Shown piece after piece: positions 2-56,614 of a stretch of DNA of 64,000 bases (positions are counted from its first letter, which is position 1; the number at the start of each line of letters is the position of its first letter). The notes under the pieces are model-generated. The model ran no database searches and was not told where the DNA came from. It saw only the letters and a program-made list of their open reading frames with translations. This DNA comes from a virus. Its lineage: Duplodnaviria; Heunggongvirae; Uroviricota; Caudoviricetes. Made by a program: the position numbers and the translations under genes. Where the stretch lies: IMG/VR virus record IMGVR_UViG_3300025015_000009, positions 192,001 through 256,000 of that record; one strand, 5' to 3'.

Positions 2-88
2 CCAGTTACAGTTACATGTGAACATGAAGATTGTGGTAAAGACTTTAAGATTAGATTAACGTTTGATTATTCAAATTTTTTCGATTGA
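2..88 (+). CDS. C-terminal end of T4 gp26-like baseplate hub assembly protein (partial, runs off window)
   Basis: Frame 2 reads PVTVTCEHEDCGKDFKIRLTFDYSNFFD*. A Cys pair and a terminal NFF are typical of gp26-like proteins. Confidence 0.6.
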   Translation, partial: PVTVTCEHEDCGKDFKIRLTFDYSNFFD

Positions 89-312
89 GGCTTTCCTCAT
101 TGGATCACGATGCTATTCATAAGTACATCGAAAGTCTAGAAAATGAAGCGAAAGCCTTAAAAACAGAACTGCTTAATATGTGTTGGTTTATGCGTGGAGG
201 AATAACGTATGACGAAGCAATGTTATTATCAAATGAAGACAGAAAAATCATAAACGATATAACAAAAGCAAATATAGAAACAGTTAAGAAAACAGGACTC
301 CCCTTGTTATAA
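85..312 (+). CDS. gp51-like baseplate hub assembly protein; probably translated as the -1 frameshift extension of the upstream ORF
   Basis: 75-aa ORF with CWFMRGGITYDEAMLLS..DR..I motif. It has only a TTG start with no Shine-Dalgarno and directly follows T-TTT-TTC at 76-82. Confidence 0.6.
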   Translation: MRLSSLDHDAIHKYIESLENEAKALKTELLNMCWFMRGGITYDEAMLLSNEDRKIINDITKANIETVKKTGLPLL

Positions 313-419
313 CAAAGGGATTTCTTTGTTACATAATCAAATCAAATCAAATCATACAGACGTGGGTATCTATTAAGACATACGATAAGTTATACTTAAC
401 TACAATACATATCGCATTA

Positions 420-960
420 GAAGATGTGTTTCACACATCTGTGTTTATCGCTTTCGCTCTAACACATTTTTCTTCTCTCTACTGTATATAATTGTTTGAT
501 CTACGATAATACACATTACGCTTTAAGAGATATATTTCCGAAAGATTCAGTCATACTTTGCCCAGACACAGGGCAAAGTCATGTGACAAAAAGGGGGTTT
601 TTCCGATGAGTTCCTTTGGGCCATAGTTGTAGCAAGAATATGCGTAATCACACACGGAGGCGGTTAACCTGTACCCCCTTTATCTCTCCTTTGTTCTAGT
701 TTGCTGGCGCGTAGCCGATTGGCATTTCGAATTTAACGGTACTAATTTGCAACCCCTACAACAAGGTTGGATTAGTCAGTGGTTGTATCTTTTTCAACAG
801 AGCCACAATCATTTAACACTCAATAGTGTCTATTTCTTTGGCACTCAAGATCTGTCGGCTACTTTTTCAAGCAAACTCAATGAGGATCGAGGAATCTCGA
901 TCAAACAGGGCCTTAATTAACGGGTCTGAGGGTGTATATTCTAGTTTAGCTCAGTGCATC
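420..960. ncRNA. candidate large structured non-coding RNA or structured replication origin (strand undetermined)
   Basis: No credible ORF. Complementary pairs at 422-429/433-440, 555-563/571-579, 590-598/673-681, 711-718/855-862, 741-746/771-776 with 750-754/766-770, and 885-891/896-902. Confidence 0.5.
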
Positions 961-982
961 GCACTGTCTATGTCAATGGGTG

Positions 983-1013
983 ATAAAGAAACCTACTGCC
1001 CGAAAGCAGTAGG
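983..1013 (-). terminator. intrinsic terminator after the Hc1-like gene
   Basis: Minus strand CCTACTGC-TTTCGG-GCAGTAGG followed by TTTCTTT, about 10 nt after the stop at 1024. Confidence 0.8.
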
Positions 1014-1023
1014 CGATGGCATA

Positions 1024-1221
1024 TTACTTAACAGACATTTGGTTCTTCTTCTCTTGGATCTCCGCGCGGCGAAGCTTGGATAGTTTACCCAAGTCTCCTA
1101 GTGCGGCGCGGGCGCGGGCCGAAGATGCTTTAATACCTTGTGTTTCGAATTTTTCGTGCTCAGCCATATAAACACGGATTGCTTCAAGAATTGCTTGATG
1201 AGTTGATGTTACGTCGTTCAT
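1024..1221 (-). CDS. histone H1-like (Hc1 family) small basic protein
   Basis: 65 aa with EKF..QGIKASSARARAALGDLGKLSKLRRAEIQ, matching the Hc1-type G.KAA..RAR.A...L.KL.K..R pattern. AGGAG Shine-Dalgarno present. Confidence 0.7.
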   Translation of the reverse strand: MNDVTSTHQAILEAIRVYMAEHEKFETQGIKASSARARAALGDLGKLSKLRRAEIQEKKNQMSVK

Positions 1222-1266: not shown

Positions 1267-3039
1267 CTAATTTATTTCTACCCCAAATGCGAACGAGGAA
1301 AACCCGTTCTCTTTGACTACAGACAAAATGTTGTTAACTCTACTAACCAGTTCGTCTTTGTGGCTAACAAGCCAGATGCTTTTATGATTATCTCTTGCCA
1401 TTTTCTTGAGTATTGCTAATGCGCTTTCAACACCAGCAGAGTCTAACCCAGAATCGATTAGCTCGTCGACGAACAGTAAGTTAATTGGTTGCCACGACGC
1501 TTCCCATACATCACGAAAAGCCCAACTCAACGACAAAATTAGCCGGGTGCGTTCTCCTCTGGATAGATTGTCAAAATCTAAATCACGGCCAAGCTCTGAG
1601 ATGCTAACTGTTAGGTCGTTTTGAAAGATAACTTGATGCGGTAACCCGATACGGTCTAGATATTGGCTTAGTCTTGCGTTTAAGTAGCCGAGGTTTTGAT
1701 CAATAATCCGTTTGCGAACAAACGAGTCTTTGTTTGTTAACAATTTTAATAGGAATTCTTGGTGTTCTTTTAACGTAGTTAACTCGTTTATCTTTTTAAA
1801 GCAGATTTCTTCTAACGCAGTTTCGACCATCTCGTTGATCTGTTCTTCGTACAAATCATGAGCAGAGGTAACAGATGTTATTTGTTGAGAGATGTTTTCT
1901 ATAGTTCCTCGATGTAAAATCGCATCTTCTTCTTTAGAATAAAAAACAGTGGGGCATTGTTCGTCAGGCCCCAACTCCGCTAGGGCAAGTTCTAACGATG
2001 CAATGCTTTTGTTATGTTCGGCTATAGATGCGAGAGCAGTGGTTAATAGTTCTTGCTTACTTTGGAGCAAGTGGGTGTGCGTGTCATCATGAAGTTTTTG
2101 CCCACACGAGTGGCACTGGTGATTAAGCAAAAGAGCCAGTTCTTTATCGAGTCGGGTAACCGCAGTGGTTTCTTTGTCACGCTGCACTTTTTCACGTGAA
2201 ATAGCCATAGATAACTCAGTTGCATCTCGTTTGCGCTGTTGATACAAAACAACCTGTTTGTGGGCAGCAAGCTCAGCATCGATGTCAAGCGTCAGTAGCT
2301 CGTCAAGTGCCACTTGCAAAGATACTACATCGCTGTCTTGCTTTTCTTTCCAAGTAACTTGTTTTCTTTTTAAACTAGCGATCTGATCCTCGATCCTCTT
2401 GTTAGCATCGCCGACTGCCTTTATTCGGTATTCCTCTTGTTGAATAGCATCTTTAGTCTCTTTAACGATTTCTTTAAGAGCATCGGCTTTTTCGCTTAGT
2501 AGTGTTATACCAAGTAGCTGTTCTATTATAGTTCGCTGGTCGTTTGCTTTTAAACTCAAGAATGGCTCAGTGTAGGTATTAAGAGCAACCACGTGTTTAA
2601 ACATGTCGTGGCTCATACCGATCATATGTTCTATTGCACGTTGAGTTTCTCGACTGTCTCCCTGGGCGTCGTTATCCAACTCTTGTTCGCTGTCGCCGAC
2701 CCAGAATCGCATAACGTTCGGCTTTCGACCTCGTTCAATTCTATAAACTGTATTATCTTTCTCGAACTCAACGGTAACTAACATGTTCTTCCCGTTTGTC
2801 CTATTAACTAAGTTATCTTTCTTTATATTAGTTAACGCACTACCGTACAGTGCATAACTGAGTCCGTTTAATGCAGATGTCTTGCCAGTACCATTCCTCG
2901 AGCCCGACCCGTCTCCACCCAGGTCTAAATTTTCACCCAACACTAATGTGATGTCTGTTCGGTCAAAATCGATAGCTTGAGTAACAGCACCAATTGATAG
3001 GAAGTTCTTTAATGTTAGAGTTTTGATCTTAAATGTCAT
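1267..3039 (-). CDS. gp46: recombination endonuclease ATPase subunit (T4 gp46 / SbcC-Rad50 family)
   Basis: Walker A RNGTGKT, coiled coil with CHSC zinc hook, LSRGE signature, Walker B LFVDE, H-loop VSH. Confidence 0.93.
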   Translation of the reverse strand: MTFKIKTLTLKNFLSIGAVTQAIDFDRTDITLVLGENLDLGGDGSGSRNGTGKTSALNGLSYALYGSALTNIKKDNLVNRTNGKNMLVTVEFEKDNTVYRIERGRKPNVMRFWVGDSEQELDNDAQGDSRETQRAIEHMIGMSHDMFKHVVALNTYTEPFLSLKANDQRTIIEQLLGITLLSEKADALKEIVKETKDAIQQEEYRIKAVGDANKRIEDQIASLKRKQVTWKEKQDSDVVSLQVALDELLTLDIDAELAAHKQVVLYQQRKRDATELSMAISREKVQRDKETTAVTRLDKELALLLNHQCHSCGQKLHDDTHTHLLQSKQELLTTALASIAEHNKSIASLELALAELGPDEQCPTVFYSKEEDAILHRGTIENISQQITSVTSAHDLYEEQINEMVETALEEICFKKINELTTLKEHQEFLLKLLTNKDSFVRKRIIDQNLGYLNARLSQYLDRIGLPHQVIFQNDLTVSISELGRDLDFDNLSRGERTRLILSLSWAFRDVWEASWQPINLLFVDELIDSGLDSAGVESALAILKKMARDNHKSIWLVSHKDELVSRVNNILSVVKENGFSSFAFGVEIN

Positions 3040-3053
3040 AGGCAGTTAGCAAG

Positions 3054-4070
3054 TTATATACTACGGTAAATTTCCAACAACATCTTTGGATCATATGTGC
3101 TAGTGTCCAGCCCGTTTATACTAGCCGATACAATCTGATCAACAGACTCGAACTGGATCTGCCCTACGTTGTCATACTGGCTAACATCGCTTGTTTTTGC
3201 AGGAATTAGTGCGATTTCTCTGAGGTTATATGTGGTAACGAATGTTTCTTTAATGAAGTTTGCCTCTTCGTAGCTAATGTCTATATCTAGGTTTACACGA
3301 GTATGCATTCCGGGTAATAGTATTTTTTCGGGGTCGGTTAATACATCGCTTAACTTATGAACGCGGTATCGAGGTTGCTCTGCCCAGGTGTGGTATACTG
3401 GGGCAGATCCCCATTCAAGGGTTACACATCCTCGTGCATCATCACCTGCATCGGCATAGCTGTGAGGAAAACAATTTCCTATGTACGATATATTCTTGTT
3501 GGTTTGCCGCTTGTGAAAGTGGCCACTGAACACATGCCCGATGTGTTCAAGGTGTTCCCGTTGAATCTCGCCGTGATCGGGCATTTGAACCATTGCATTC
3601 ATATAAAAATGTGGCAATTCAAAGTGACCGAACATATAATCGGCTTTGATCTTACGCAAACGAGAGTGTTCATCTTTAACTAACCACGGAACTATACTTA
3701 CATTCTCATCTTGAAAGAAGTCGTTTACGATTATGATATTTGGTATGTGTTTTGCCCATTCGGCACTTTGCACGTCTCGTTTGTCTCTGTAGAAGAGATC
3801 GTGGTTCCCAGGAATAAAAAATACTCGTTCGAAGTTCTTACTAAGATGTTCTAAACACTTAATCGAGTAGTTTAAGGTTACTATGTTAATTGATGCTCGA
3901 TTATTATGAAAGTCACCTAAGAAGAAACACGTATCGCATCCTTCTTTTTTTGCTGTCTCAGTAAGCCATTGGATGTAATTCCAACAGTCATTGAGATGTA
4001 CGCTGCTGTTTGATTTTAATCCCAGGTGCAAGTCTCCGAACAAACAGGATTTTTTAAAAAGATTACTCAT
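3054..4070 (-). CDS. gp47: recombination endonuclease nuclease subunit (T4 gp47 / SbcD-Mre11 family)
   Basis: Metallophosphoesterase motifs GDLHLG, LGDFH, PGNHD, GHFE and SGHFH; adjacent to gp46. Confidence 0.93.
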   Translation of the reverse strand: MSNLFKKSCLFGDLHLGLKSNSSVHLNDCWNYIQWLTETAKKEGCDTCFFLGDFHNNRASINIVTLNYSIKCLEHLSKNFERVFFIPGNHDLFYRDKRDVQSAEWAKHIPNIIIVNDFFQDENVSIVPWLVKDEHSRLRKIKADYMFGHFELPHFYMNAMVQMPDHGEIQREHLEHIGHVFSGHFHKRQTNKNISYIGNCFPHSYADAGDDARGCVTLEWGSAPVYHTWAEQPRYRVHKLSDVLTDPEKILLPGMHTRVNLDIDISYEEANFIKETFVTTYNLREIALIPAKTSDVSQYDNVGQIQFESVDQIVSASINGLDTSTYDPKMLLEIYRSI

Positions 4071-4141: not shown

Positions 4142-5752
4142 TCAAACAGCTACCCAGATAAAAACCTTATTACCGCAGTCCCATATTCTATCCCATTTGT
4201 TATTTTGCATATTCTGCCATTCAGACAAGTGCGCATCGAACGTACTAAGTTGTTTTTTTAATTTGTGTTTTTGGAATTTTTGTCTAGAATAAAACGTACA
4301 ATAGTCGTGAGTATAAAAGTAATTCGGATTACTCTGATGTGAAAACACGAACCCTAGTTTTTGGTACATATTTCCGCGAGTATTTGATATGTCACTATAC
4401 GACACAATAGAGGCTGGCGCGTATTCAACAACAAACATACTGAATAGTTTACTCGCGCCGCCGACAACTGTATGGTTGATTTTGTTTGCAAAACGAATCA
4501 ATTCCCATTCGGCAGTTTTTCCAAAGCGGCACTTTGCAAATGTCATAACCGCTAATAACTCATTATTTAAAAACAAACCATAACAAGCCGTTGCAGCCGA
4601 AGTACACCCGTGCAAGTGATTTTTATTTAAAAATATATCGGCTTCGCTTTTGGTTATGCGTTTTCCTGTGCATTTTCTAGCAAATATGCGAGTAGCACAG
4701 TTAAATACACTGGTGAGCATCGACTTAACAACATCGGTTCTGTTGGTCCAATGGTGTTCCCATATGTGTATTAGTTGAATATTTTGTTTAGCACATTCTG
4801 TGCTTTTTTGTGAATGATAAAATTTAGTTCGACCATTTAACTCAGAATGCCAGTATGATCCGTTACACTCGATTGCTAACTTAATGTCTGGGAAAAACAA
4901 ATCTAGTTGTTTTGTTTTTAAAATAGACCTGTCGTTAGTAATACACAGGCCGTTGTACAATGTTTGAATAAATTGATGTACGTCTATTTCTAAGTTACTC
5001 TGTGACTTCTTAGTCAGTAGTATGCCTGCATCTTTTATTGCACTATACACCGGGTTAGTAGATACGTTGTATTTTTTTGCAATTTCGAGCACAGTCATTG
5101 TTTTACACAGCTCGTCCAATTGAGTTGAATCAGCTAACACCTGTTTAAATTCAGTGGAGTAATGTGCTTGTTTTTGATTATCGACTCCGAATTGTTGTTG
5201 GTTGGTCGCTCGTATCTTAGATAAGATACCCTCCGATAAAAACGGGTTACTAACACCGTATTTGGTTATAAAATAAGCCGCAACTTTGTCTTTAACTTCT
5301 TTGCTCTGAGCAGCACTCTCAACCCCGTACTTCCTGATGCTTGTTTCTTTAACGCGAGCAGTGTGGTCGACGGTTTTGCTGTAATGGTCAACACCAAACC
5401 GCCGCAAACTTGTTTGTTTTACTTTTGCTGCCCAGTCGGTTGTCTGAGAATGCCATTCAACTCCAATTGTAGATAAATTGTGTTTCTTTTTTTCAACAAC
5501 TGTTGCCCTCGCTGTACACCGCTTAGAACAATATTTGCGATATTCCCTACGGTCAGAATGCCAAGCTAAGTTTTCCCCACATGTGCAAGTGGGTATGGCA
5601 GCGAGGGCTGTTGTATAATGGTATAATAGTTGCCGGGGGTTGTTAATTCCGAGCAAGACGTATGGCTGTATATCTAACCATAATACAGATTTTTGTAAAT
5701 CTACTATGGTTAGATATTTCTTTGCTACTAATTCACTACTCGCTGTCACCAT
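4142..5752 (-). CDS. free-standing homing-endonuclease-like protein (Zn finger, KYGV repeats, Vsr/PD-(D/E)xK-like nuclease, GNAT-like C-terminus)
   Basis: CTC..YCSKRC; repeats such as KETSIRKYGV; LDLFFPDIKLAIECNGSYWHS; WELIRFA..VGGASKLF..IVSYSD..RIWDCG. Start uncertain (5752 or 5797). Confidence 0.7.
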   Translation of the reverse strand: MVTASSELVAKKYLTIVDLQKSVLWLDIQPYVLLGINNPRQLLYHYTTALAAIPTCTCGENLAWHSDRREYRKYCSKRCTARATVVEKKKHNLSTIGVEWHSQTTDWAAKVKQTSLRRFGVDHYSKTVDHTARVKETSIRKYGVESAAQSKEVKDKVAAYFITKYGVSNPFLSEGILSKIRATNQQQFGVDNQKQAHYSTEFKQVLADSTQLDELCKTMTVLEIAKKYNVSTNPVYSAIKDAGILLTKKSQSNLEIDVHQFIQTLYNGLCITNDRSILKTKQLDLFFPDIKLAIECNGSYWHSELNGRTKFYHSQKSTECAKQNIQLIHIWEHHWTNRTDVVKSMLTSVFNCATRIFARKCTGKRITKSEADIFLNKNHLHGCTSAATACYGLFLNNELLAVMTFAKCRFGKTAEWELIRFANKINHTVVGGASKLFSMFVVEYAPASIVSYSDISNTRGNMYQKLGFVFSHQSNPNYFYTHDYCTFYSRQKFQKHKLKKQLSTFDAHLSEWQNMQNNKWDRIWDCGNKVFIWVAV

Positions 5753-7574
5753 CACTGTTGCTACAGCTATTTTGTCTTGTGTATGAGGGGTTAACATTGT
5801 TCATCTCCAATATGTCATCTCTTATATTTTGATTCTTCTTTTCTATATTTAGCACACGAGTAAAAGAATTTGTTATAACAGCCGTATAATATGCAAATGG
5901 GTTCTGAGACTTACTTTCGTCAAATTGCAATCCAATTTGAGCTAGTTGTAGTAACGCCTGGGATCTCATTTCGTCGTTGTAAGTGTTACCGGTAATGTAT
6001 ACCATCCCGTTTCTTTTAGCAACAAAGCAGCCGAATTCTGTTTCAGGACACCAAACCTGACCTTTGTATAGAATCGTCGGTTCGTTTAGACGGGTTGTTC
6101 CGTCTGCGCGCGTTTGATTAGTTCCTTTTCCACCGTAAAAGTTAATATCAGAGCAGCGAACGGTTGAATCGGCAGTCGGTGAAATAATAACAGTGTGATG
6201 TGAGCTGAGTTTGTCAAGTGGTGTGTGTTTGAACGATGCAACTGCTTTTGTTTTAACCCCAGTTACAGCACAGAGTGCTTGGAACATATTGATTACATCT
6301 ATGTTTTTGTGTGTAAGTTTTTGAGTACCGTTACACATAACATTAATGAGCAGCATTCGTTGAGAGGTAGTCAGCGTGGATATAAACTCCATTGTTAGAT
6401 TCTTCCCAGGGAACAGTTCGACTAGTTTGCTTGACGATGCCTCTGATAATAAAAAGTCAGTTAGTTTGCCTGATCCGGTAACAATTGACTCTGAGAATGA
6501 ATAGCTAAGTTCGGTTAAACATGCGCGGACCCTGTCTGTTAGATCAGGACGAATTCGAAGAGAAACAAGTTTGTTCGAACTAGCAGATATGGTACATTGC
6601 CCAAACATTACCATCCATCCTGCTAATGTGACAAAAGGTGCATTGTGTATCTCAGTGCTATTTCCTTTTTCTGCTATTCCCATTGTTACTATTCGATCAG
6701 AATCTGTTAAGTCGTCAACTTTAATTAATCCGGATTGTGTTACAAATTTGTGTTCTGGAGTAACTAATGCATCAATTCCACGCCCGCGTAAGTGAAACAT
6801 AGAACCGTCAAACTCGCCCCGGTAAATTGATTTAATACTGGACCAGGTCAGCATACCGTTTGTGTACGATAGTATAGTGTCTTGCTCGGTTATCTGATCA
6901 ACCGAAAGCCACCCTCGTTGAGTTAACGCAGTAGTTCTAGGATCAACACAGTACCCACGCCAGTTAGACCTAGTTGCATATCGTTCGCATAACTTCATAT
7001 ACATAGTTGCAAGGGTATTTGTTACTTGCCCGTGTTCTTTACTAAACTGTCCGTCAGCACTGTTGCCTGTCCAATGGCTCCGTCCGATACAAACAGGGTT
7101 GTTGTTTTCGTCTAGCTTGTAATGACAAAACGGCGGGAAGTTAACTTTTGTGTATTTTGCTGGTTTTGTGATCTCAATAATGTCGTCTATCGAATCGTAC
7201 TCGGTTACCGGCTCAAATAGTTCGTTGGAATTGAATTTCTTACCTTTACTAACACTCTCTGCTAGTGGAATATGTTCCCACGTCATCACTCTAAACACTA
7301 AATCTTCGGTTTTGATGTCATCTACAGACACTGCAACGTCGTCGGCTTTAACCTTAACCCCACCGGCAGCGTGTTGTTCAACCGCATCTTTTGTTAGCCT
7401 CTCGGCTTTGTTCTGTTTTGCTTGGTCGATATGAGACACCAAATCGATAGTGCTACTCAAGATTATGTCGTAGCTCGATGAGCTATTATCAAAGCTACAA
7501 TAAGATGATTTGCTCTTATGGATTTCCTTAAGTATGTCTTTGTTGTTTAAGTAGTTGACTGTTTTCCTTGCCAT
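5736..7574 (-). CDS. gp55: late-transcription sigma factor (T4 gp55-like), intein-containing precursor; spliced product about 290 aa
   Basis: NYLNNKDILKEI N-terminus; RSNWRGY/TYNDEM and FDESKSQNPFAYYT..ITNSFTRVLNIEKK are gp55-type motifs; located beside gp47/gp46 as in T4-like phages. Confidence 0.85.
   Translation of the reverse strand: MARKTVNYLNNKDILKEIHKSKSSYCSFDNSSSSYDIILSSTIDLVSHIDQAKQNKAERLTKDAVEQHAAGGVKVKADDVAVSVDDIKTEDLVFRVMTWEHIPLAESVSKGKKFNSNELFEPVTEYDSIDDIIEITKPAKYTKVNFPPFCHYKLDENNNPVCIGRSHWTGNSADGQFSKEHGQVTNTLATMYMKLCERYATRSNWRGYCVDPRTTALTQRGWLSVDQITEQDTILSYTNGMLTWSSIKSIYRGEFDGSMFHLRGRGIDALVTPEHKFVTQSGLIKVDDLTDSDRIVTMGIAEKGNSTEIHNAPFVTLAGWMVMFGQCTISASSNKLVSLRIRPDLTDRVRACLTELSYSFSESIVTGSGKLTDFLLSEASSSKLVELFPGKNLTMEFISTLTTSQRMLLINVMCNGTQKLTHKNIDVINMFQALCAVTGVKTKAVASFKHTPLDKLSSHHTVIISPTADSTVRCSDINFYGGKGTNQTRADGTTRLNEPTILYKGQVWCPETEFGCFVAKRNGMVYITGNTYNDEMRSQALLQLAQIGLQFDESKSQNPFAYYTAVITNSFTRVLNIEKKNQNIRDDILEMNNVNPSYTRQNSCSNSDGDSE
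5985..6950 (-). mobile_element. intein (322 aa) with degenerate LAGLIDADG-like region
   Basis: Block A CVDPRTTALTQRGW, block B LVTPEHKF, block F VWCPET, block G YITGN followed by Thr+1. Removal restores WRGY-TYNDEM. Confidence 0.92.
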
Positions 7575-16215: not shown

Positions 16216-19200
16216 ATGGCATTTAAAACAATAGACTTCCTACCAGATATTTTCAAGAGCGAAGCCAATAAAAAGTTTCTAGGAGCAACGTTAGATCAGG
16301 TAGTTTCTCAGCCTGAGTTTACAAAAGTAAATGGCTACATAGGAAGAAAACTTGCTCCCACATACAAATCATCTGATAACTACTTACTCGAAGACACTAA
16401 AGATCGAGCAAACTATCAATTGGAGCCTGGTCTTGTAATCTCAGACAACAATAATAATATCTACTCGTTTACTAGCTACACCGACTTAATTGGGAAGATT
16501 TCTTTTTATGGAGGAATAGTAAATGACCATTCGAGGTTGTTCTCTAGTAATTACTATTCGTATGGTGATATCTTTGATCTTGACAAGCTGGTAAACTTTA
16601 GCCAGTACTACTGGATGCCAAACGGCCCGCCGATTATCGATATCTTCGCAAGCGGAACGACGTTGGTTGATACGTTCAATATTACTCATGCAAGTAATAA
16701 CTTGTACGTTAACAATAAGATAGGTTCACCGAACACCAATATTGTTGTTGCTCGTGGAGGGAATTACACTTTCACTGTGGATCCTGACGTAAACGGGAAA
16801 TTATGGATACAAACAAACTCATCACCAACCGGAATTATATATAATTACCCGAACCAGTCTTCTAGACAAGTATACGGTATTACAAATAACGGAGCCCCGT
16901 ATGGCGAGATTACGTTCAGCGTACCTAATGTAACAGATCAGCAGTTTTATGAGAATTTAGCAGATGCCGGAGTGGTTGACTATGCAACCAGTGTTCCCTT
17001 TGTTGACATTAACAATCATTTACTATCAACGTTCAATGAAAAGTGGATTGGGTTCGACGGAGTAACAACTGCGCTTCATGGTAAGCATTTAATATTTGTA
17101 AATCACAACGATTTATACGATAAGAACGATCTGTGGAAATCGTACTCTTTGTACGACAACGGGGTATACGAGGATCTAACTTTTGCAGATGAGCAAGAAT
17201 CGGTATTGTTTTCAAATAGAGGTAATATCTGGAGAATATCGTTGGTTCCTATTAACAACGGAGCTGACTATGTTATCCGATTAACACAACTTGATGTATT
17301 TGAACCAAGAACTAAACTGTCGGTTTTAAACGGTCAGCAGAATGCAGGTAAAGCGTTTTATAAAGACTCGAGCGGATACATAGCTGAAGTTCCATTGATA
17401 ACTGCACCGTTAAGTTCGTTGTATTATGTGTACAGCGACAACGATACTCTAATCTCTGGCAAAATCATAATTGTTGCTCCTGATTTAACAGAGATTGACG
17501 TCGAGCGAGACATACTGGGACAATCTAATTACACCAGTCCGAATGATGTTGCTTTCTCAAATGGAATGCGAATTCGATTTAGCTCTACCGTTATCCCTGC
17601 TAGTTACGAAAATGAAATATTTTACGTAGAACAAGTAGGCAAAGGTATTCGTTTAATAAATGAGAAGTCACTGTTTGTCACTGAATCGTTAACTGATAGA
17701 GATGTAGGAACAGTTCCGTTGGACATATTCAGCTTCGATGCTGACTTGTACGACGAGGCATACAACTCGGCGAAGATTCCAGATTTTATTACTATTAACA
17801 GGTCGTCTATCGACGGTAACTCGTGGTCAAGAAGTAACAGATGGATACACAAGAACGTAATCGAACAAGCTGCTAGGTTTAACAACGAATCGCCGATACT
17901 TGACCAAGACTTCAGAGCACTCCGCCCTATCATTGAGTTTGATCCTGATATCTTGTTGTTTAATCACGGGCGAGAAATAAAAGGCCAAGTTGACATATTA
18001 GACCTGACTACAGTAACTGACGCATTCAACAGTATGTCAGGAGCGATTACTTTTAATCATTTCGGCATTACGCTAAAAACAGGAACAAGAATAATCTTTG
18101 CAGCTGACGTTGATCCAGCAGTACGGAATAAGATATACACTGTGCATCTGGTTGTTGACGACAACTTGACAAAGATTCAATTGATTCCTGATGCTGACGT
18201 GTTGCTCCCGTATCACAGTATTGTGCCGATGCAAGGGGTAAACAAAGGAAAAACATACTGGTACAACGGAACCATCTGGATCGAAAGCCAAAGAAAAACT
18301 GCAACAAATCAAGCACCGAGATTTGACATCTTAGATAACCAAGGAATGTCGTTCGGTAACGACGCGGTTTACCCAGGAACGACGTTCAATGGGAACACGC
18401 TATTTGGTTACGCAAAAGCAACAACTACGCTCAGAGATCCGGTATTGGGGTTTGCAATAAAATACAAAAACATTAGTAACATTGGTGATTTAGAGTTTAC
18501 TAATTATTTCGATGTAGGCACATTTGACTACTTTACTACTCTTGTTCGGAGTGATAAAAGAACAGCCCGAACATCAACTGGAAATATAAACAAGATTACT
18601 AATCGAGCAACATTGCGGAATAGCTCGATGTGGGAAATCGTGGCAGAAAAATCAAAACAACATCAGATTTTTACGTATGCGTACACACAGTATAGCAAAT
18701 TTCAAGTTGATATTAGACCCAACAGTTTAGTTAGTCACGTTGATCTTCGAGTATATGTAAACTCGGTGTTGCTTCCGTCTGCGCTGTACGTGTTCAACGA
18801 CACAAACGAGAATATGATGTTCGTTGATGTTAATTACGACTTTATTGAAGGCGACAAAATCGACATCTTAATTCATAGTCGAGAAGTTTCGTCTACAGCG
18901 TACTACGAAGTTCCACGCAACTTAGACCTGAATTCTAAGAATTCAGCATTTGATAGTTTAACGCTGGGTCAGCTACGGAATCACTTAACAACGGTTGCAA
19001 CAGTAACAACAGGGTTCCTAGGAGACAAACTAGGAGCAAACAATCTTAGAGATCTCCACTACAGTATAAGCGGAGGTGATATATTGTTGCAGCAGTCACC
19101 TGTTATTTACAGTCAGCTTTTCTTATTAGATCCTGTGTTAAATTTTGTTGACAGTGTTGAACATGCACAGAAAGAATATGCAAAGTTCAAGTATAAGTTC

Positions 19201-22200
19201 TTAGATGCAGCATTGTCTCTTCAAATGGAGTCGATTCCGTCTCCAGTGCAAGCTGTTGATATGCTGTTAACTGAATTAAACATAATCAAGAATAATTCGT
19301 TTCCGTGGTATTATAGCGATATGCTACCGTACGAATCATCGTTCGCAACAACACTAAGTTATGTCATACTGAACTCTGAAATAACTGATTACGAAATGTC
19401 TGCTGAGTTCGATAAAAATAAACTCAGTAACAAATCAGTTCTTGTGTATTACAACGGAGTGCAACTAATTCATGAGCGTGATTATATTTTCAGAGAAGGG
19501 TTTCCAATACTTCGCTTGTTGGTTGAAACGCAAGTTGATGATACATTACAAATTGTAGAGTATAGCAACACCGACGGCTGTTATGTGCCTGAGACTCCGA
19601 CTAAGCTCGGGGTATTTCCCCGGTTTGTACCTGAAATCAGATTAGACGACACGTTCTCAGTACCGCAGCGGGTGATAATCGGCCACGACGGTAGTGTTAC
19701 TATCGCATTCAACGATTACAGAGACGATTTGTTATTAGAGTTAGAGAAGCGGATATATAATAACTTAAAAGTAACGTATAATACTGACTTCTTTAACATT
19801 GCATCGGTGGTCCCAGGCAAGTTCAGAACCACTGATTACAGTAAGACAGAATTCGACAAGATATTGAGTCGTTTATTTTTAAAATGGGTAGGTAACAATC
19901 GAATTGATTTTTCTACTAACTCGTACTTCACTGGGACCGATCCTTGGTCGTGGAATCACAGCGGGAACACCGACAAAATAACAGATGAGTTTCTGCCAGG
20001 GTTCTGGCGCGGAATTTACCATTACTTCTACGACACTGACACGCCGCATATAACCCCATGGGAGATGTTGGGATTGACAGTGAAACCAGACTGGTGGGAA
20101 ACACAGTACGGTCCTGCTCCGTATACTGGTGGAAACTTAGTAATGTGGCGTGATTTAGAGAAAGGGTTGATAGTCGATGGCCCTGCTGCAGGCATCGTTC
20201 CGGAGTTTGCGCGTCCTGGACTACTTCGTGTTATTCCTGTTGACGAAAATGGTCGATTAAAGCCGCCTAGTGAGTTTATAATGAAGTCGTATGACCCAAC
20301 TAACTTCTCTACAAATTTTGTATTTGGAGATCGTGGTCCAGTTGAAGCAGCTTGGCGCAGAAGTAGTGACTACCCGTTTGCACTTCAAATTGCCCTTGCA
20401 TTAGCAAAACCCGCTCAGTACATGGGCAACTGCCTGAATATTAGTAACTTTACTTACAATGCTCGGTTAGGGCAACTTCTAACAGCCCGTCGCGAGGTGC
20501 TATCCCCGTCGGTTATCGAAATTAACGGAGAGATAGTAAACGGAGTAGTAACACGTAATGCCGGATATTTAAATTGGATTGTTGATTGGACCAAATTGTT
20601 AGGTATTGATGGCCCGTTGAAAGTCCGTACAGTGTTAGACAAGGTAGATGTAAGACTAGGATATAAATTAGCTGGGTTTACAGACCATCGATACCTGGAG
20701 GTCTATGCAGAGCAAAGTAGCCCAACTAGTCTCAGAGAGTCGATTGTTGTACCGAACGAAAGTTACAAAATTTACCTGCACAAATCGCCACCAGTTATTA
20801 AAGCGACGTACAGTGCTGTTATTGTAGAAAAGTCTTCAAACGGGTACAGTGTCAAGGGATACGATGTGATGCATCCGTACTTTACTATACTGCCCAGCAT
20901 AATTAACTCGCGCAACAACAAGATTAGTGTAATCAACGAAGTCGGAACAATTTATTCTGAGTTTGAAGATCGAGAGGTTGACTTTCCGTATGGTACCGAA
21001 TTCACAACAAAACAGCAAGTAGTTGACTTCCTAACTAGTTACCAACGCTATTTACAAAAGAACGGGTTTGTATTTGAAACATGGAACCCTGATCTAGAGT
21101 GCCTTAAAGATTGGACCTTATCGGTTAAAGAGTTCTTAACGTGGTCTCAACAAGGATGGAACACAAACGACTTGATCGTGTTAAGCCCGTTTGCTGAGCA
21201 ATTAACATTTAAGTCGGGGAACTACTTTGTTGACGAAGTTAAGAATCAAAATAACCGGTCTAAAGTATTAGATCAGAATTTCATGCCAATTAAGGCAGCA
21301 AACTTCTCTATAGTTAGAGATGACGACGTGTTTACGTTAACTGCTCCGAACCAAACTATCGCATATGCAGAATTGCATCTTGTGCAGTTCGAACACGCGA
21401 TAGTTTTCGACAACGAAACATTGTTCAAAGACGTTATATACAAACCAGAATCTGGGAATAGACAGTTTAGACTTAAACTTGTTGGATCAAAAACCAGTAA
21501 CTGGACTGGTCGCTTATCTCCTGGCGGATTTATATATAACGATGCATATGTTCCTTCCTGGCAGCCAAGCACCGATTACAAAAAAGGAGAGCTGGTCGAA
21601 CATAAGTCTGTGTACTACGTTTCCCCGGTGAATATTATTGCACAAGACCAATTCGATTTTACTCAATGGCAGTACGTAGATAAGAAAACATTAAAATCTG
21701 GGTTACTTCAAAATTTCTCGTTACATGCTCAGAAGTTTGAAGAGTTCTATGACATAGATACTATCGGATTAAGTGAGAGTGTTAACGTGTTTGCAAAAGG
21801 AGTCATTGGATTTAGACCACGCCAGTACCTGTCTGATCTCGGACTCGATAGTACAACGCAGCTAAAGTTTTATCAAGGATTTATCAGAGATAAAGGAACA
21901 GTTAGTTCGTTGGAGGCGATGAAATCAGCAACATTCAACAACCTTGCCAATGAAGTTACAGTGTATGAAGAGTGGGCGCTTCGTATGGGGGATTATGGCG
22001 GAGTAGACCACAATCAATTTTTTGAAATCGCACTTGATAAAGGAAAATACTCTACAGACCCAGTTACACTAGAGTTGTTAAACGACACAGACACAGAACA
22101 AAGTTTAGTCATCGGAGTCAAGAAGAAACACCTGTACAAACAGCCAACAGTATTTAATAAAAACTTTGTTCAGACTAGATCTCGAGAGTCTGTTCTCGAG

Positions 22201-25200
22201 AACGACTTGCTGACTGCTGGATACGTTAACATCGATGACATTGACATAACTATTTTTGATCTAACTAACTATATTGAGTTAAACAGCAAATTAGCTACGC
22301 TGGGCAGTGGGACTAAGATTTGGATTGCCAAGGACTTTACAAGAAACTGGAATGTATTTAGAGTTAACGAGACTGAGAACCAAGCAATATCAATTAAGTA
22401 CATTGATGACCTAACAGCAACGGTAACCACAGAGTATCCGCATGGGTTAGTGGTAGGTGAGGTTTTTGCGTTTAAAGGGTTAGCAGCTACCGTTGATAGT
22501 TTCTATCGAGTAGAAAAGATTAACTCTATATACGATGTAACTGTGCTATTCTTGATGGACATAGCAGAGCTAAAGAATGCTGGGGTCACCGGAGAAACTG
22601 GTGTTCCGACAGGTGAGGTTGTTGGCCGAGCAATACTATATAGACTATCTAGCTTACGGTACGCATATCTGAGTGATATAACAGATACTACCTTGCTGCA
22701 CAACTGGAAAACAATCGATAAGGTTTGGGTAGATAACGCAGATTCGTCGGGCAACTGGGGAGTGTTAAAGAAGAACGAGCCGTTTGTAACTGTTGACTCA
22801 TTATTGCCAACGAATCATAGCGGGGAAGATAACTTCGGTTCGTGTGTTTGTGCAGATAAAGATGCTAAAGAGTACTACGCAGTTGGGCAACCTGTTACGA
22901 ACAACTTTGCTGGAATTGTGAGCATATACGGAAAAGATATTTTCGGACAAACAGTATTGATGCAGCAACTGTCACCAATTAACCCGGATACACTCGGGTT
23001 TGGATACAGTATTGATATCAGTAAACAGTATGTTGTTATTGGGGCACCAGCAAGCAGCAATAACATTGGCCACGTTTACGTGTTCAGAAAAGACGTGGGG
23101 GCATCTCTGGTGTTCACTCAGCTGCTGACTATATCTGATGCTGATGCAAGATTCGGCACGTCGGTTACTATAAGTAATGATAATCAATGGATATATGTAG
23201 GCGCGCCAGGTATCAACAAGGTATTTTGTTATTCAAGCAGATATATAAAATCTGATGCACATTATATCCAAACAGTCGATTCAGTTGTTAATTATACGCT
23301 TGACGAGGTGTACCACCCAGAGAGTGTAACCTTATACAACTCTGTAAACAACTTAGTTCTTCCTTCTGAATATTCTATAGTAGGAGATCAACTTGTTTTT
23401 CTTAACAACCCGTCTACATCGCAGTTTAGACTAGACTCGGGACCGTATTACGAGTTAAACAGCACATTAACAGAGTCTGTTTCTCCAGGGTCGCAATTTG
23501 GAACCGCAGTAAAGACGACAGATGATGGGTCACAGTTAGTAGTAGGAGCCCCATACTCAACAGAGGTTATAGATGGCACTCAATACACAACTGCTGGGTC
23601 CGCGTATTTGTATTCTAGAACGGTGTCTGAGTTTGTTGCGAATGGAGTAGATAATGCATTTACAGTTCTCACTGGTAACGTAGATAGTGTGCTAGTAGAT
23701 AACGAGCGGTATAATGTAAATTCGCAGTATACTGTTACCGGAAATGTTGTGTCGTTAAATTCAGCCGCAACAGTGAACAGCATAGTTCGTGTTGACCTCA
23801 GGGACATAACTCTTATCAAGAAGTTGTTGCCTTCAGTTACCGCAGTTAACGCAACATTCGGGATGAGCGTTGACATGTCAAACAATGGGTCTGTTATTGT
23901 TGTTGGTGCTCCATACTATACAGAATCTACGTATCATAGCGGAATGGTTACCCGATTTGTTAATATTGGCCTAGAGTATGGAATTGTTACTGCTACTGCT
24001 ACACCTAGTATATCCATTGGGCAGAGCTTGTTTATTAATAATAATGAAGTAATATCAACTGGGATTACTCTTGCGACTTTTGTGACCGATATAAATGACG
24101 CAGCTATCCCTGGGGTAACAGCGTCAACAGCCGATGGGCATTTATCGATAACGGTAACAGGAGTTAGAACAACAGCATCTATCATGCCTGGATACGGTTC
24201 GTTGTTTTCTGACTTTGCATTCGACCTCGTTAAAGAAACTCAACGACTATTACATCCAGGTCGAGATCATGGTAATACACAACAATTTGGAATGTTGGTC
24301 AAATACGACAACACTTCTAGGTCGTTGGCGATCTCCAGCCAGTTTGCGAGCTTAACAACAAAAGCTACAATCGACAGTGGGACAACGTTGTTTGATAACA
24401 GAATGACTGAGTTCTACGATTCTGTGACCCACTCTGGTGTTGTATATACATACGAGTTACTAGTAGACTCTCGGAGAACTAGTACGCATCCTGACAGGTA
24501 TTGTTTTATTCAAGAACTAGTTGATCCTGGGATCAAGCCATACGACAGGTTTGGACATGGTCTATCGTTTGTGAATAACACAGTAATTGTAGGATCGCCA
24601 GGCAGTGACGACCCTGCACCGTTTGACGCCGAGAACGACAATCACTCTATCAGAACCGACATAGGAAAGGTGTACTTCTTTAAGAACGAAAATAACACAC
24701 CTGGGTGGGAGAAGTTTAGATCACAGGCGGTTAAGGTAGACATAAGTTGTATCAACAGAGCGTTTATTTACAGCAAAAAAACAAACGAAATTATTGCTAA
24801 CTTAGATTTCATTGACCCGGTTAAAGGTAAGCTGCTGGGAGTAGTAAACGAGGACATTGACTTTAGAACAACAACCGATCCAGCAAGATACAACGTAGGT
24901 ACTGATGTATCGTTGGCGATTAACTCGTCGTATCGCTGGGGAGCAGAACAAGTAGGCAAAGTTTGGTGGGATTTAAGTAGTGTCCGGTTTGTTGAGTACG
25001 AACAAGGTAGCTTGCTTTATAGGACTGTTAATTGGGGAAGAATGTTCCCAGGTTCAGTTGTTTCAGTGTACGAATGGATAGAATCTGATGTTACTCCAGA
25101 AGAGCACGTTGCCCAGTTACGTCATGGTACGCCAAAGTATCCGAGCAACGAAGGATACGCAGTCAGTCACTATGTTGATAAAACAACAGATTTAATTAAG

Positions 25201-28200
25201 AACAAGTATTACTTCTGGGTAAAGAACAAGGAGACAGTGTCGCCGAGCAAAGCAAAGTCGATAGTTAATGTAACACAGTACTTAACAAATCCGAGAGGTG
25301 CCGGGATTCCGTATGCAGCGTTTGTTGCAAGCAATTCTGTAGCACTATACGGAGTGACTAACTTGTTGGCCGACTCAGATATTATCTTGCACATAGAGTA
25401 CTCGAAGTTTGTGAATTCTGAAAAAATCCCAGTACACTCTGAGTACGAATTTATTCAAGAAGGGAATCCGGATTTTGTATTTCCTGAGAAGTTTGTTAAT
25501 AAAGTGTTTGATAGTCTAATAGGATTTGATCGCCTTGGCCGTCTTGTTCCTGACCCCACTATACTCGAAACTCAGCGATACGGCTTGGGCATTCGACCGA
25601 CACAAACAATTTTTAAAGATCGATTTGCAGCCAGCAAAGTAGTTGTTTCGTTTGTTAATGCCACGTGCTTGTTGTATCCGATCGCAATCCAAACTGATAT
25701 AAGTGCGCTGTACCAAGCAAGCCCGTTGCCAGCAGAAACCGAGTACGACCTGAAGGTAATGAACAACGAAGAACTATCGTACGTTGATCTATTAAAGCAT
25801 CCTGATGGAACACGGATATTAATTGTTGTTGATTCTAACCACGGGAACCAATGGGCAATATCAACGTTAACCGATCATTCTACGCTGTCGTTGCTACGGA
25901 AACAGATATACAATACAACTGATTACTGGTCATTAGTTGACTGGTATGCACCTGGATATGACCCAACAACAAAGTTTACATATACTGTTGAGTCTGAGAA
26001 GAACGTAGATATGTTACAGTTGGTACCCGAGGATGTAATCTTCGTTAAGAACAGTAACAAAGGCGGGTTCTTAATATACAAGATAGATAGCAACTTAACT
26101 AAAACGTTAGTTGGTATCCAAAACGGAACAATTCAACTGTCTAGTGCGTTATACACTGTTGGCGTAACTGGTGTTGGGTTTGATACTAGCTTATGGAGTC
26201 AAGAGAACTACGACCCGAATAATGCGTCTCAGTATAGAATTATACTGGAAACACTTAGAGACAGTATCTTTACTAAGAGCTTACAGAAACACCAGCATGA
26301 AATGTTATTCGAGTTAGTGTACTATGTTATGTATGAACAAAAAGACATAGACTGGTTGTTTAAGTCGAGTTTCGTGTCGGTTGTGCATAAACTTAGAAAA
26401 CTAGACCAGTACCCTAGTTTTACACACGATAACCAAGACTATTATTTGCAGTATATAAACGAAGTTAAACCGTATAGAACTAAAGTCAGAGAGTACCTAG
26501 TTAACTATTCGGGGTTAGATTACTTCCGCAGCGGATTAACTGACTTTGATTTGCCTCCGTACTACGATACAGACGTTGATGTCTTCAGAAGCCCGTCGGG
26601 AGAATTAGTTAAAGATGCTACGTTGCTAACAACTCGACCAGACTTTGCGGCCTGGAATGCAAATCATGCATACAAGGTAGACAGCATTGCTATTGTATCT
26701 ACTGTTCCTGGATTTGAAGTGCCGCCTACAGTGGTAGTGTCTGGTGGCGGCGGATCAGGTTGTACGTGTACTGCCGTTATTAACTTCTACACCGGAGACC
26801 TCATCGAGGTTATAGTTGATAATCCAGGGTCGGGATACACCTCAACTCCGACTGTTACGGTAAACGGTGCAGGTGGATCAGCGGTGTTGTATGCAATTCT
26901 ATCCAATCGGATGGTACGAACAATAAACGAGACCGTTTCGTTTGATAGGTGTTCATACGAATCTACACTGATCGAGTGGAAACCATATAGACCAGCAGCT
27001 GGTGCCGTTCCGGCTGAAGAGCACACATATTATGTAGGTGACAAGGTTTACTATAACAATGTTGTGTATGAGGCACTAGAAACAGTAGTTAATGCTACAA
27101 CCTTTAGTATAAGCAAGTACAAACAAGTTGATGCTGCAACACTAAACATAAATGACAAAATCGTTGCATACTATGAACCAGTTGCTCCGTCGAATCCAAA
27201 ACAACTAGATAAACTGTTAACTGGTATTTCGTACACAGGAGTTGAGGTTACCGGATTGCCGTTCTCTGAGGGCGCCGACACCGGAGTTGATTCGCCGCTA
27301 ACAGATTACAAGGTTACGTATGTTGGTATTGCCCGTGAAGGCGACACCAGAATGATGACAGAGTCAGGCAACATTGTTATGGTTACACCTGCTAGTGTGC
27401 TGTTCGGAAGAAACAGACTAATTGCAGCAACAGGTGAGTTCGTAGTTACTTTTTCTCGTGCTAAGTTGAAAGAAGAGCTGATAGCGGTGCCAAGTTCGTT
27501 TATTGCAACAGGGAACAAAGCAACGTTTGTAATTGGGCGCGAGATTCTAATAGCAAATGGAACTGTTATGTCGCAAGAATCAGACATAATCGGTGTAGCA
27601 GGCGCGACAGCCTCGGTGATTACACACAATGCAAGAGAGCGATATTTAGTTGTTCGGTTACTGACAGGACTCTTACATTCGGGTATTAGCCAACCATTGG
27701 TCGATACGAACAATGTTATTACTGTTGGTACATTGGCCACCACAGTGGAAAGAGTAACAACAAAGGTTGATTCGGTTATATCAAGCAAGTTCACTGATCT
27801 AGTGGATATAGACTTGACATACGAAGGCTCGAACGCTGGCCCTAATTACGTCGTAGGAAGCGAAGTAGTTCAATTAGGCAGCAATGCAGTTGGTGTTGTG
27901 TTCTCGCATAACTCCGTTGACTCTGTGGTTGGGCTGCGAATAAGAACAGGGACATTTGTGTCTGGAGTAGGAAACTACATAACTGACGGAGTCACTACTG
28001 TAGGCACAACCTCTATCACAGTAACTAACAGTGACTATTCTAACTTAGAGTTGGTGCTTGACGACGACATTGTTGTTGACGGTGGGGGATTTATTGACGT
28101 ACATCACAGTCATGCTCCTGAAGAATTACTTCCAGGGCAAACGTTTGATTCATTGGCTATCTCGGTATTCACACGGATACCGGCCGGAACGTTTATGGGG

Positions 28201-55935: not shown

Positions 55936-56226
55936 CTAATACTTAAACTTAAGAGTAATATGATCCAGGCGGTGTAAAGCGGTGCCAGATTCACTGACCC
56001 GATGCCCGTTGATCCACCACTCTTTGTGCCCGTTATTGTATATAATAGCGGGGCCATCTTCTCTGTGCAATTTGCCGTTGGTGTACCATTGCTTCCCGCC
56101 ATTTGCGTATATAATAGCGGGACCATCTTCTCTGTGCAATTTGCCGTTGATGTAATAGTACTCGGTGCCGTGCTCGTCAATGACAATTTCGGTTTTAAGT
56201 AAAGAAAGTAGGGATTCGGGGGACAT
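55936..56226 (-). CDS. HREDGPA-repeat protein, 2 repeats (paralog of 55366..55923)
   Basis: Same MSPESLLSLLKT...DEHGTEYYY N-terminus with near-identical DNA. Confidence 0.85.
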   Translation of the reverse strand: MSPESLLSLLKTEIVIDEHGTEYYYINGKLHREDGPAIIYANGGKQWYTNGKLHREDGPAIIYNNGHKEWWINGHRVSESGTALHRLDHITLKFKY

Positions 56227-56228
56227 TG

Positions 56229-56384
56229 TCACAGTCCGTTGATAATTATGTACGCCGCAGCAAATACGGTCAGGCCCAAGACAAACTTAATCGTAATGTT
56301 AATCCAGTTTTTGTTTGACCAGATAATGAACATGAATAGAGAGAGTAAACCAGTTGCTGCAACATACCACATAATCAGATCCAT
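56229..56384 (-). CDS. 51-aa two-TM membrane protein (not in ORF track)
   Basis: MDLIMWYVAATGLLSLFMFIIWSNKNWINITIKFVLGLTVFAAAYIIINGL*, AGGAG Shine-Dalgarno. Confidence 0.65.
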   Translation of the reverse strand: MDLIMWYVAATGLLSLFMFIIWSNKNWINITIKFVLGLTVFAAAYIIINGL

Positions 56385-56396
56385 ACTGTTCTCCTG

Positions 56397-56605
56397 TTAA
56401 TTTGACATAGTAACCTGAAAAGTGGCAGAGTTGTGGCAGACAACTGTGAACCTTTGTTTAACTATATAACTAGCTTCGACTAGATATACTCCGTTGTTAT
56501 TTAAGCACAGTTCGGTGGCCCGCTTCCAATGTAGATCGCTCACTGGTACTGGCATACATCCAGTGAGACTAACAAGCAAAAGGTTGCAACAATAGATGTT
56601 TTCAT
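56397..56605 (-). pseudogene. lipoprotein gene with 1-nt frameshift in its signal peptide
   Basis: ATG 56605 (AGGA Shine-Dalgarno) gives MKTSIVATF; the lipobox frame LLVSLTGC is reached only with one more T in the T4 run. Confidence 0.55.
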
Positions 56606-56614
56606 TATAGTTTC

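Follow-up and report, generated by a model that had tools for sequence, protein, structure and literature searches.

A gap in the analysed DNA holds an element that, as judged by sequence comparison, belongs to a large family of RNAs that Rfam does not list. Our tentative best reading is that it is the putative primer RNA of a ColE1/T4-like R-loop replication origin in T4-like jumbo phages. The original prediction had offered a large RNA or, alternatively, a structured origin. A structured RNA of no known family was borne out, the strand and the named helices were not, and the two ideas may combine as one putative RNA-primed origin, which makes the alternative the interpretation we favour, at somewhat less than an even chance.

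The window, meaning the whole 64,000-nucleotide stretch that was analysed, spans positions 192001-256000 of a 318,013-base virus record that is 91% complete and whose nearest cultured relative by SbcC is PA5oct (48.5%). The gap covers 313-1023, between a small plus-strand gene, which we take to be gp51-like, and the minus-strand Hc1 gene (Table 1). The flanking genes are convergent and a terminator-like site is present on the minus strand at 1014-991, both as predicted; this hairpin would set a boundary between the element and the operon upstream. The gap is indeed the longest in the window, and is not the sole one as had been thought: a second gap of 428 nt (56187-56614) is also without an ORF of at least 70 aa. 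A palindrome at 299-320 spans the stop of the plus-strand gene, is terminator-like on the minus strand and is followed by the four AATCA repeats that had been noted at 335-354. Palindrome and repeats (299-354) are present and lie outside the conserved element.

Table 1. Features of the element and its surroundings, in window coordinates.
Feature	Position	Strand	Remarks
Small baseplate-module gene	85..312	+	Convergent flank; no Pfam/PHROG match; synteny in relatives
Terminal hairpin, GAA triloop	422..440	-	T-A closed in window; terminator-like on plus strand too
Hairpin with tandem G.A mismatches and GCGAAAGC mini-hairpin at 457-450	441..466	-	Candidate single-stranded DNA signal
A/T-rich tract, 72% A+T	467..530	-	Candidate unwinding element, downstream of repeat 2
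Conserved structured RNA core	530..917	-	Profile and covariance-model matches; covariation
Direct repeat 2, 7 nt	535..541	-	Identical to repeat 1; 65 nt downstream of it
Last conserved RNA hairpin	555..579	-	Between the two repeats; 97% paired, 4/8 compensatory
Direct repeat 1, 7 nt	600..606	-	In loop of local hairpin 618-588
Pseudoknot	663..737	-	737-733 with 667-663, loop of helix 678-673/661-656
Lineage-specific insertion	698..730	-	Can form two stacked 8-bp helices, with 855-862 and with 870-877
Variable hairpin (named in original prediction)	741..776	-	
Helix with A-rich loop	779..806	-	100% paired, 4/6 pairs compensatory
5' domain	840..912	-	Helix 912-910/842-840, hairpin 903-886, helix 884-881/847-844
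Sigma70-like promoter candidate	943..970	-	-35 at 970-965, -10 at 948-943; 9/12 matches
Intrinsic-terminator-like hairpin	991..1014	-	3' of Hc1 gene
Hc1 histone-H1-like gene	1024..1221	-	Flank; last gene of minus-strand block
SbcC gene	1267-3039	-	Minus-strand block before Hc1
SbcD gene	3054-4070	-	Minus-strand block before Hc1
Homing-endonuclease gene	4142-5797	-	Minus-strand block before Hc1
Late sigma factor gene	5736-7574	-	Minus-strand block before Hc1

By comparison of related sequences, the transcript strand was shown to fold into a conserved multi-helix core, the 5' end of which we infer to lie near 917 or slightly upstream and the 3' end just beyond repeat 2. A 32-pair structure, evaluated on a core alignment of 33 sequences, is paired in 97.0% of cells, with compensatory changes in 19 of its pairs. 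None of 500 shuffles reached this, and slid controls pair in 42-51% of cells; both controls flatter the structure, because it was derived from the same 33 sequences. The 5-bp pseudoknot is paired in 94% of cells (3 of 5 pairs compensatory) and the helix whose loop it engages in 100%; pseudoknot and closing helix with compensatory changes are found in the window. An RNAalifold pairing of columns 89-92 with 281-284 was superseded by the pseudoknot. Pairing in the 5' helices is seen in 30-32 of 32 and 32-34 of 34 rows and involves 2-5 types of pair; the registers of hairpin 903-886 and of P1c were excluded from the covariation evidence. The loop of helix 779-806 is presumably T-loop-like.

The pairings named at the outset fared unequally. 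Their sequences are all present: the long-range pairings 590-598/673-681 and 711-718/855-862, the hairpins 422-440, 555-579 and 741-776, a fourth hairpin at 886-903 (given as 885-902), and a 9-mer direct repeat at 694 and 939. Perfect long-range pairs alone are at chance level, both at 8 bp (4 seen against 2.4 expected, P = 0.23) and at 9 bp (2 against 0.64, P = 0.14). The pairing 590-598/673-681 lacks conservation, with 57.7% of 52 cells paired, no compensatory change and 227 of 500 shuffles doing equally well; its G-run instead forms pairs with 656-661 in all 33 sequences. Of 34 rows, the window's is the only one in which the pairing 711-718/855-862 is complete. It is nevertheless probably a real lineage-specific helix, because a second perfect 8-bp helix, 698-705/870-877, absent from the original prediction, stacks on it, and such a stacked pair arose in just 7 of 2000 shuffles. 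The insertion that these helices use, about 40 nt, is missing from most relatives; no close relative of the window was found among the contigs of four sequencing runs. The proposal of a large multi-domain RNA thus stands on conservation and covariation, with conserved helices that differ from the two named and with the minus strand as the probable transcript.

Several pointers favour that strand: G.U pairs, GNRA loops, -10 boxes in cultured phages and the PA5oct transcript described below. The G.U versus A.C test is weak when made unbiased (1.65 vs 1.07; 2.92 vs 1.91), and single-sequence folding favours the plus strand, opposite to the inferred RNA strand, with folding-energy z-scores against shuffles of -5.15 on the plus and -3.03 on the minus strand (20 shuffles each).

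The collection of homologues and the covariation test that had been proposed both gave positive results. Among 80 loci fetched by the Hc1 protein, the best 80 of 416 matches, 44 match the gap by nhmmer, 43 of them at E <0.005. With a 20-nt core pattern, 120 loci were obtained, and the viral collection was estimated to contain about 770 viral-contig stretches of this kind; chance motif matches L108 and L130 were left out of the counts. The 91 full-length representatives (<93% identity to each other) have lengths of 389-551 nt and share 49-62% identity with the window. One copy is present in this 91%-complete genome (G000) and one in the complete genome G001. G002 carries a second, divergent copy on the same strand (165,925; L304) with its own matched repeat pair; the gene that follows this copy is not part of the usual synteny. 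A conserved hydrophobic protein of 77-82 aa, without a Pfam/PHROG match, is often encoded on the opposite strand, directly downstream of the element (e.g. L006:4838-5086).

No family could be assigned, as the original prediction had found. Rfam covariance models gave no match in the window, with chance matches alone at E <=10 in 200-1300, and nothing above threshold on the element in 13 related loci; by Rfam it is not GOLLD or ROOL. Resemblances to CsrA sites, group I introns, RNase P and tmRNA were dropped, and a tmRNA lies elsewhere in the record. GOLLD, ROOL and OLE are large, multi-helix, pseudoknotted RNAs common in phages and lake metagenomes, and GOLLD is located near tRNA genes and is highly abundant during lysis. 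The element is likewise large, multi-helix and pseudoknotted. It is set apart by its covarying direct repeats and DNA-type hairpins and, compared with GOLLD, by not lying beside a tRNA cluster (118-134 kb in the record, against 192.5 kb for the element; 31 tRNA calls and one tmRNA, all outside the window) and by the rarity of its probable transcribed relative, ncRNA004, at 0.02-0.08% of phage reads.

The most distinctive feature of the family is a pair of direct repeats, 7-9 nt long, that flank the last conserved hairpin. When all column pairs of a 99-sequence alignment were scanned, the three pairs with the strongest identity covariation lay in the repeats at offset 54; they are identical in 98% of 97, 97% of 99 and 97% of 99 rows, against 48-51% expected. 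On the tree, each repeat position changes 19-31 times and the joint state changes 21-32 times. The repeat-pair script, run on 91 rows, gave an off-register pair in about 13 and none in 2. Among 27 cultured and island copies the expected pair was found in 22, and one RaK2 copy has repeats that share 19 identical letters. The repeat sequence is mostly constant across the copies of one genome (121Q, GAP32). Munch has both variants: two of its copies have one variant in both repeats, and a third has the other in both. Each variant is matched inside its own copy, and therefore the matching is within-copy. The repeats have no constant complementary partner upstream within the element, where scattered 5-8 nt sites occur, and their openness in single-sequence folds is modestly above average (0.50 and 0.55 vs 0.40). 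Since identity and not complementarity is conserved, both repeats would answer to one partner, which would be either the template DNA strand or a protein.

Downstream of the repeats, the A/T-rich tract averages 71% A+T, against 55% in the core (91 elements). Among the 91 representatives, the terminal hairpin has 59 GNA triloops (58 of them C-G closed), 7 GNYA and 6 GNRA loops; the penultimate hairpin, scored in 73, has 32 GNRA, 16 GNYA and 12 GNA loops; and the inner RNA hairpin has 32 GNRA, no GNYA and one GNA loop. According to the available text of PMC13037366, GCGNAGC/GCGNNAGC mini-hairpins are extra-stable as DNA and much weaker as RNA, and are found at the G4 and RSF1010 priming sites. 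The C(GNA)G triloops of the 3' hairpins, together with the covarying repeats, point to a cis role on DNA.

The promoter evidence differs among genomes. Around the window element, sigma70-like sites are at chance level (2 found, 3.4 expected). A strong sigma70 match lies upstream in 7 of 69 environmental loci, compared with 0 of 69 controls, and strong sigma70-type extended -10 boxes precede many cultured copies.

Cultured phages have syntenic gaps after gp46 in PA5oct, XaC1, 121Q, GAP32 and Munch. The 121Q gap matches 73 phage records, mostly in 4-5 places apiece. We count 4 copies in 121Q, 5 in XaC1, 5 each in GAP32, BF and Munch, and 3 in PA5oct. All copies within a genome are on one strand, 34-170 kb apart with smallest gaps of 34-55 kb; the probability of such even spacing by chance is 0.003-0.19 per genome, the genomes not being independent. 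Our covariance model, built solely from environmental sequences and with rough genome-wide E-values, matches 2 of 4 copies in 121Q (E = 8e-5, 3e-4) and 2 of 5 in XaC1 (E = 0.002, 0.004). A descriptor of the pseudoknot and a helix matches 16 of 17 RaK2-type loci. The RaK2/121Q-type copies thus share the core with the window by both methods and differ in the 5' half; their genomes are multi-copy, compared with one copy here. No copy was found in Atu_ph07. Nhmmer profiles gave no link among environmental, RaK2-type and PA5oct copies, which were linked by the covariance model and descriptor alone, and a blastn search of 50,697 phage records, with the gap and one relative as queries, gave no useful match.

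The PA5oct copies likely belong to the same family. The descriptor with an added upstream loop motif finds exactly 3 places in PA5oct, at 13.3, 76.7 and 246.6 kb, one each in G000, G001 and G002, and none in 8 shuffles of PA5oct. The link is likely and not proven, because the descriptor was composed post hoc, with the PA5oct copies already known, and because covariance-model and profile scores for these copies are not significant. One of them is ncRNA004, a rare transcript that is highest early; the available text of PMC7318152 places it at 246116-246734 on the plus strand and gives 0.08, 0.03 and 0.02% of phage reads in RNA-seq. The stated end of ncRNA004 is about 12 nt past a 5-nt match that we read as repeat 2, has no U-run and precedes the A/T tract and hairpins. 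The abundant ncRNA001 and ncRNA002 of PA5oct (L231 21951-22401; L230 8263-8498) have no similarity to the element and are separate RNAs. PA5oct ORFs 0144 and 0145 overlap the 76-kb copy (L202:9453-9870) and may be mis-annotated RNA sequence.

These features suggest the following putative sequence of events, for which the loop and spacing counts come from related genomes. RNA polymerase would transcribe the element early. Repeat 1, which the folded RNA presents in a loop, would re-pair with the template DNA of repeat 2 behind the polymerase, and this pairing would seed a persistent RNA-DNA hybrid; the repeats would always change together because repeat 1 has to re-pair with the template strand of repeat 2. 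The hybrid would open the A/T-rich tract, and the displaced strand would fold into DNA mini-hairpins that mark the site for helicase or primase loading. The RNA would be trimmed to a 3'-OH, which the phage polymerase would extend in the direction in which most genes run. In large genomes, 3-5 copies with the same orientation would be distributed at distances of 50-110 kb. The genome encodes DNA polymerase, SSB, UvsX and an exonuclease, which we take to be the T4-type RNase H, and the coding DNA on the element's strand is 77% here, 73% in G001 and 79% in G002.

If the element works like an R-loop primer origin, for which the case is again nearly balanced, it would do so without being a ColE1 or T4 origin. 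In ColE1, an upstream RNA tract pairs with a downstream template tract. The element resembles ColE1 RNA II as a non-coding RNA of about 400-600 nt with a candidate promoter far upstream of the inferred DNA start. The predicted persistent hybrid and the displaced strand for helicase loading are a further likeness, and the ColE1 primer RNA is 550 nt, both as far as the available text of PMC5043065 goes. The element differs in having no sequence or Rfam similarity to RNA II or RNA I and no antisense RNA I that we could find, in its pseudoknot, in variable 7-nt repeats in place of a G-tract, and in being accompanied by a phage-encoded replisome and several copies per genome. In the sections of PMC3016281 available, T4 origins consist of a promoter and an A/T-rich unwinding element, form persistent R-loops and number at least five per genome. 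The likeness to T4 oriF and oriG lies in the T4-like phage, a candidate promoter followed by an A/T-rich tract, several copies per genome and predicted one-directional priming. According to the same sections, T4 R-loops require no specific sequence or folded RNA, and the origins are about 100 bp with little shared sequence, whereas the element shows conservation between families together with heavy covariation, and has downstream hairpins. With G4 and RSF1010 ssiA it would share the GCGAAAGC and C(GNA)G mini-hairpins (available text of PMC13037366); its candidate hairpins differ in following a large RNA element in a double-stranded genome.

Several results were counted against the R-loop origin. 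The element is single-copy here and in G001, and Atu_ph07 yielded none. The promoter in the window is at chance level, the window's terminal loop is closed by T-A, and a nuclease gene abuts the 5' end in many relatives. In G004, a half-genome fragment, the coding DNA on the element's strand is just 23%. The sign of the GC skew is inconsistent across five contigs: the element is near the cumulative minimum in G000 and G002, at the maximum in G001 and at neither extreme in G004 and G005; the change-point test is probably confounded by a gene-module boundary.

The covarying structure with its pseudoknot would also suit a trans-acting large RNA like GOLLD or ROOL, in which a phage protein specific to the lineage binds at each of the two repeats, with the 3' hairpins belonging to the transcript or its terminator. 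The constancy of the repeats within 121Q and GAP32 and the GNRA loops in 32 of the 73 scored penultimate hairpins fit it too. We nonetheless consider it unlikely, given a family member that is rare in RNA-seq, copies that are dispersed and co-oriented instead of clustered, the within-copy matching in Munch and terminal hairpins that are mostly GNA triloops.

Less probable still is another RNA-DNA device in cis, the R-loop of which would serve recombination-dependent replication, fork pausing, or genome organisation or packaging, and not primary initiation. The neighbourhood argues for it: the syntenic copy follows SbcC/SbcD, endonuclease VII adjoins it in 121Q, XaC1 and GAP32, and a SegE GIY-YIG or PD-(D/E)xK resolvase-like gene precedes the element on the same strand in 63 of 69 loci. 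Non-syntenic copies, however, sit among unrelated genes, and the -10 boxes before many cultured copies fit early action.

The nuclease genes also raise the idea of a selfish mobile or catalytic RNA, either a ribozyme or the guide RNA of the adjacent GIY-YIG nuclease, with the repeats as recombination or target sites. Multiple copies are consistent with this, as are a copy that 2 of 5426 E. coli genomes carry on an integrase island located at ffs, and a nuclease gene that ends <=120 nt from the element's 5' end in 49 of 69 environmental loci (29 of 42 among motif-found loci alone). We regard it as quite improbable: the copies are old (69-80% identity), in fixed places and in one orientation; the adjacent nuclease alternates between two unrelated folds; neither the window copy, with its SegE-like gene at 34.5 kb, about 158 kb away, nor the non-syntenic copies have a nuclease beside them; and no Rfam ribozyme or intron matches. 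Least credible is a mere structured 3' UTR with a bidirectional terminator between convergent operons, which the convergent genes (gp51/gp26-like genes are convergent downstream in 41 of 65 loci) and the terminator-like plus strand of hairpin 422-440 would allow, but which conflicts with an upstream gene already ended by a terminator, an element with its own promoter also among co-directional genes, and tandem G.A pairs that become T.C mismatches on the plus strand.

If the R-loop origin is correct, it would name the origins of RaK2/PA5oct-like and environmental T4-like jumbo phages, provide a conserved folded primer RNA outside plasmids, put phage-dependent replicons on offer, and answer for one system what governs the formation of R-loops, a question still open in T4. 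Should the element not be an origin, there remains a large family of RNAs that Rfam lacks, one with cultured hosts and with a pair of repeats that mutate in step. We found no account in the literature of how replication starts in these two phage groups, nor a description of the element beyond ncRNA004. Fragments may be among the alignments of PMC10690425, which in its available text covers short candidates alone (29-151 nt); the available text of bioRxiv 10.64898/2026.09.15.751765 has no match to terms for the element.

A more far-reaching version, which we consider rather doubtful, is that these form a widespread class, self-targeting primer RNAs, in which a short variable guide loop invades the RNA's own gene at the identical downstream repeat, giving an R-loop and then DNA mini-hairpins; they would be the several-per-genome origins of T4-like jumbo phages, and the E. 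coli islands would carry a stolen copy replicated by the infecting phage. The E. coli island (L313:4958-15302) carries the element and a DUF4326/DUF488/dual-OB gene trio, has no recognisable replication protein and is a possible satellite.

Some features of the record lie apart from the element. The late sigma factor (612 aa; window 5736-7574, minus strand) matches its family in two stretches around an insert that is likely an intein, and a homing-endonuclease gene is located between the late sigma factor and SbcD genes. The DNA polymerase is encoded by two ORFs, of 731 and 339 aa, which a 295-aa ORF separates (279,684-283,790 of this record; L354), and the structural block includes an ORF of 4469 aa (window 16216-29625, plus strand).
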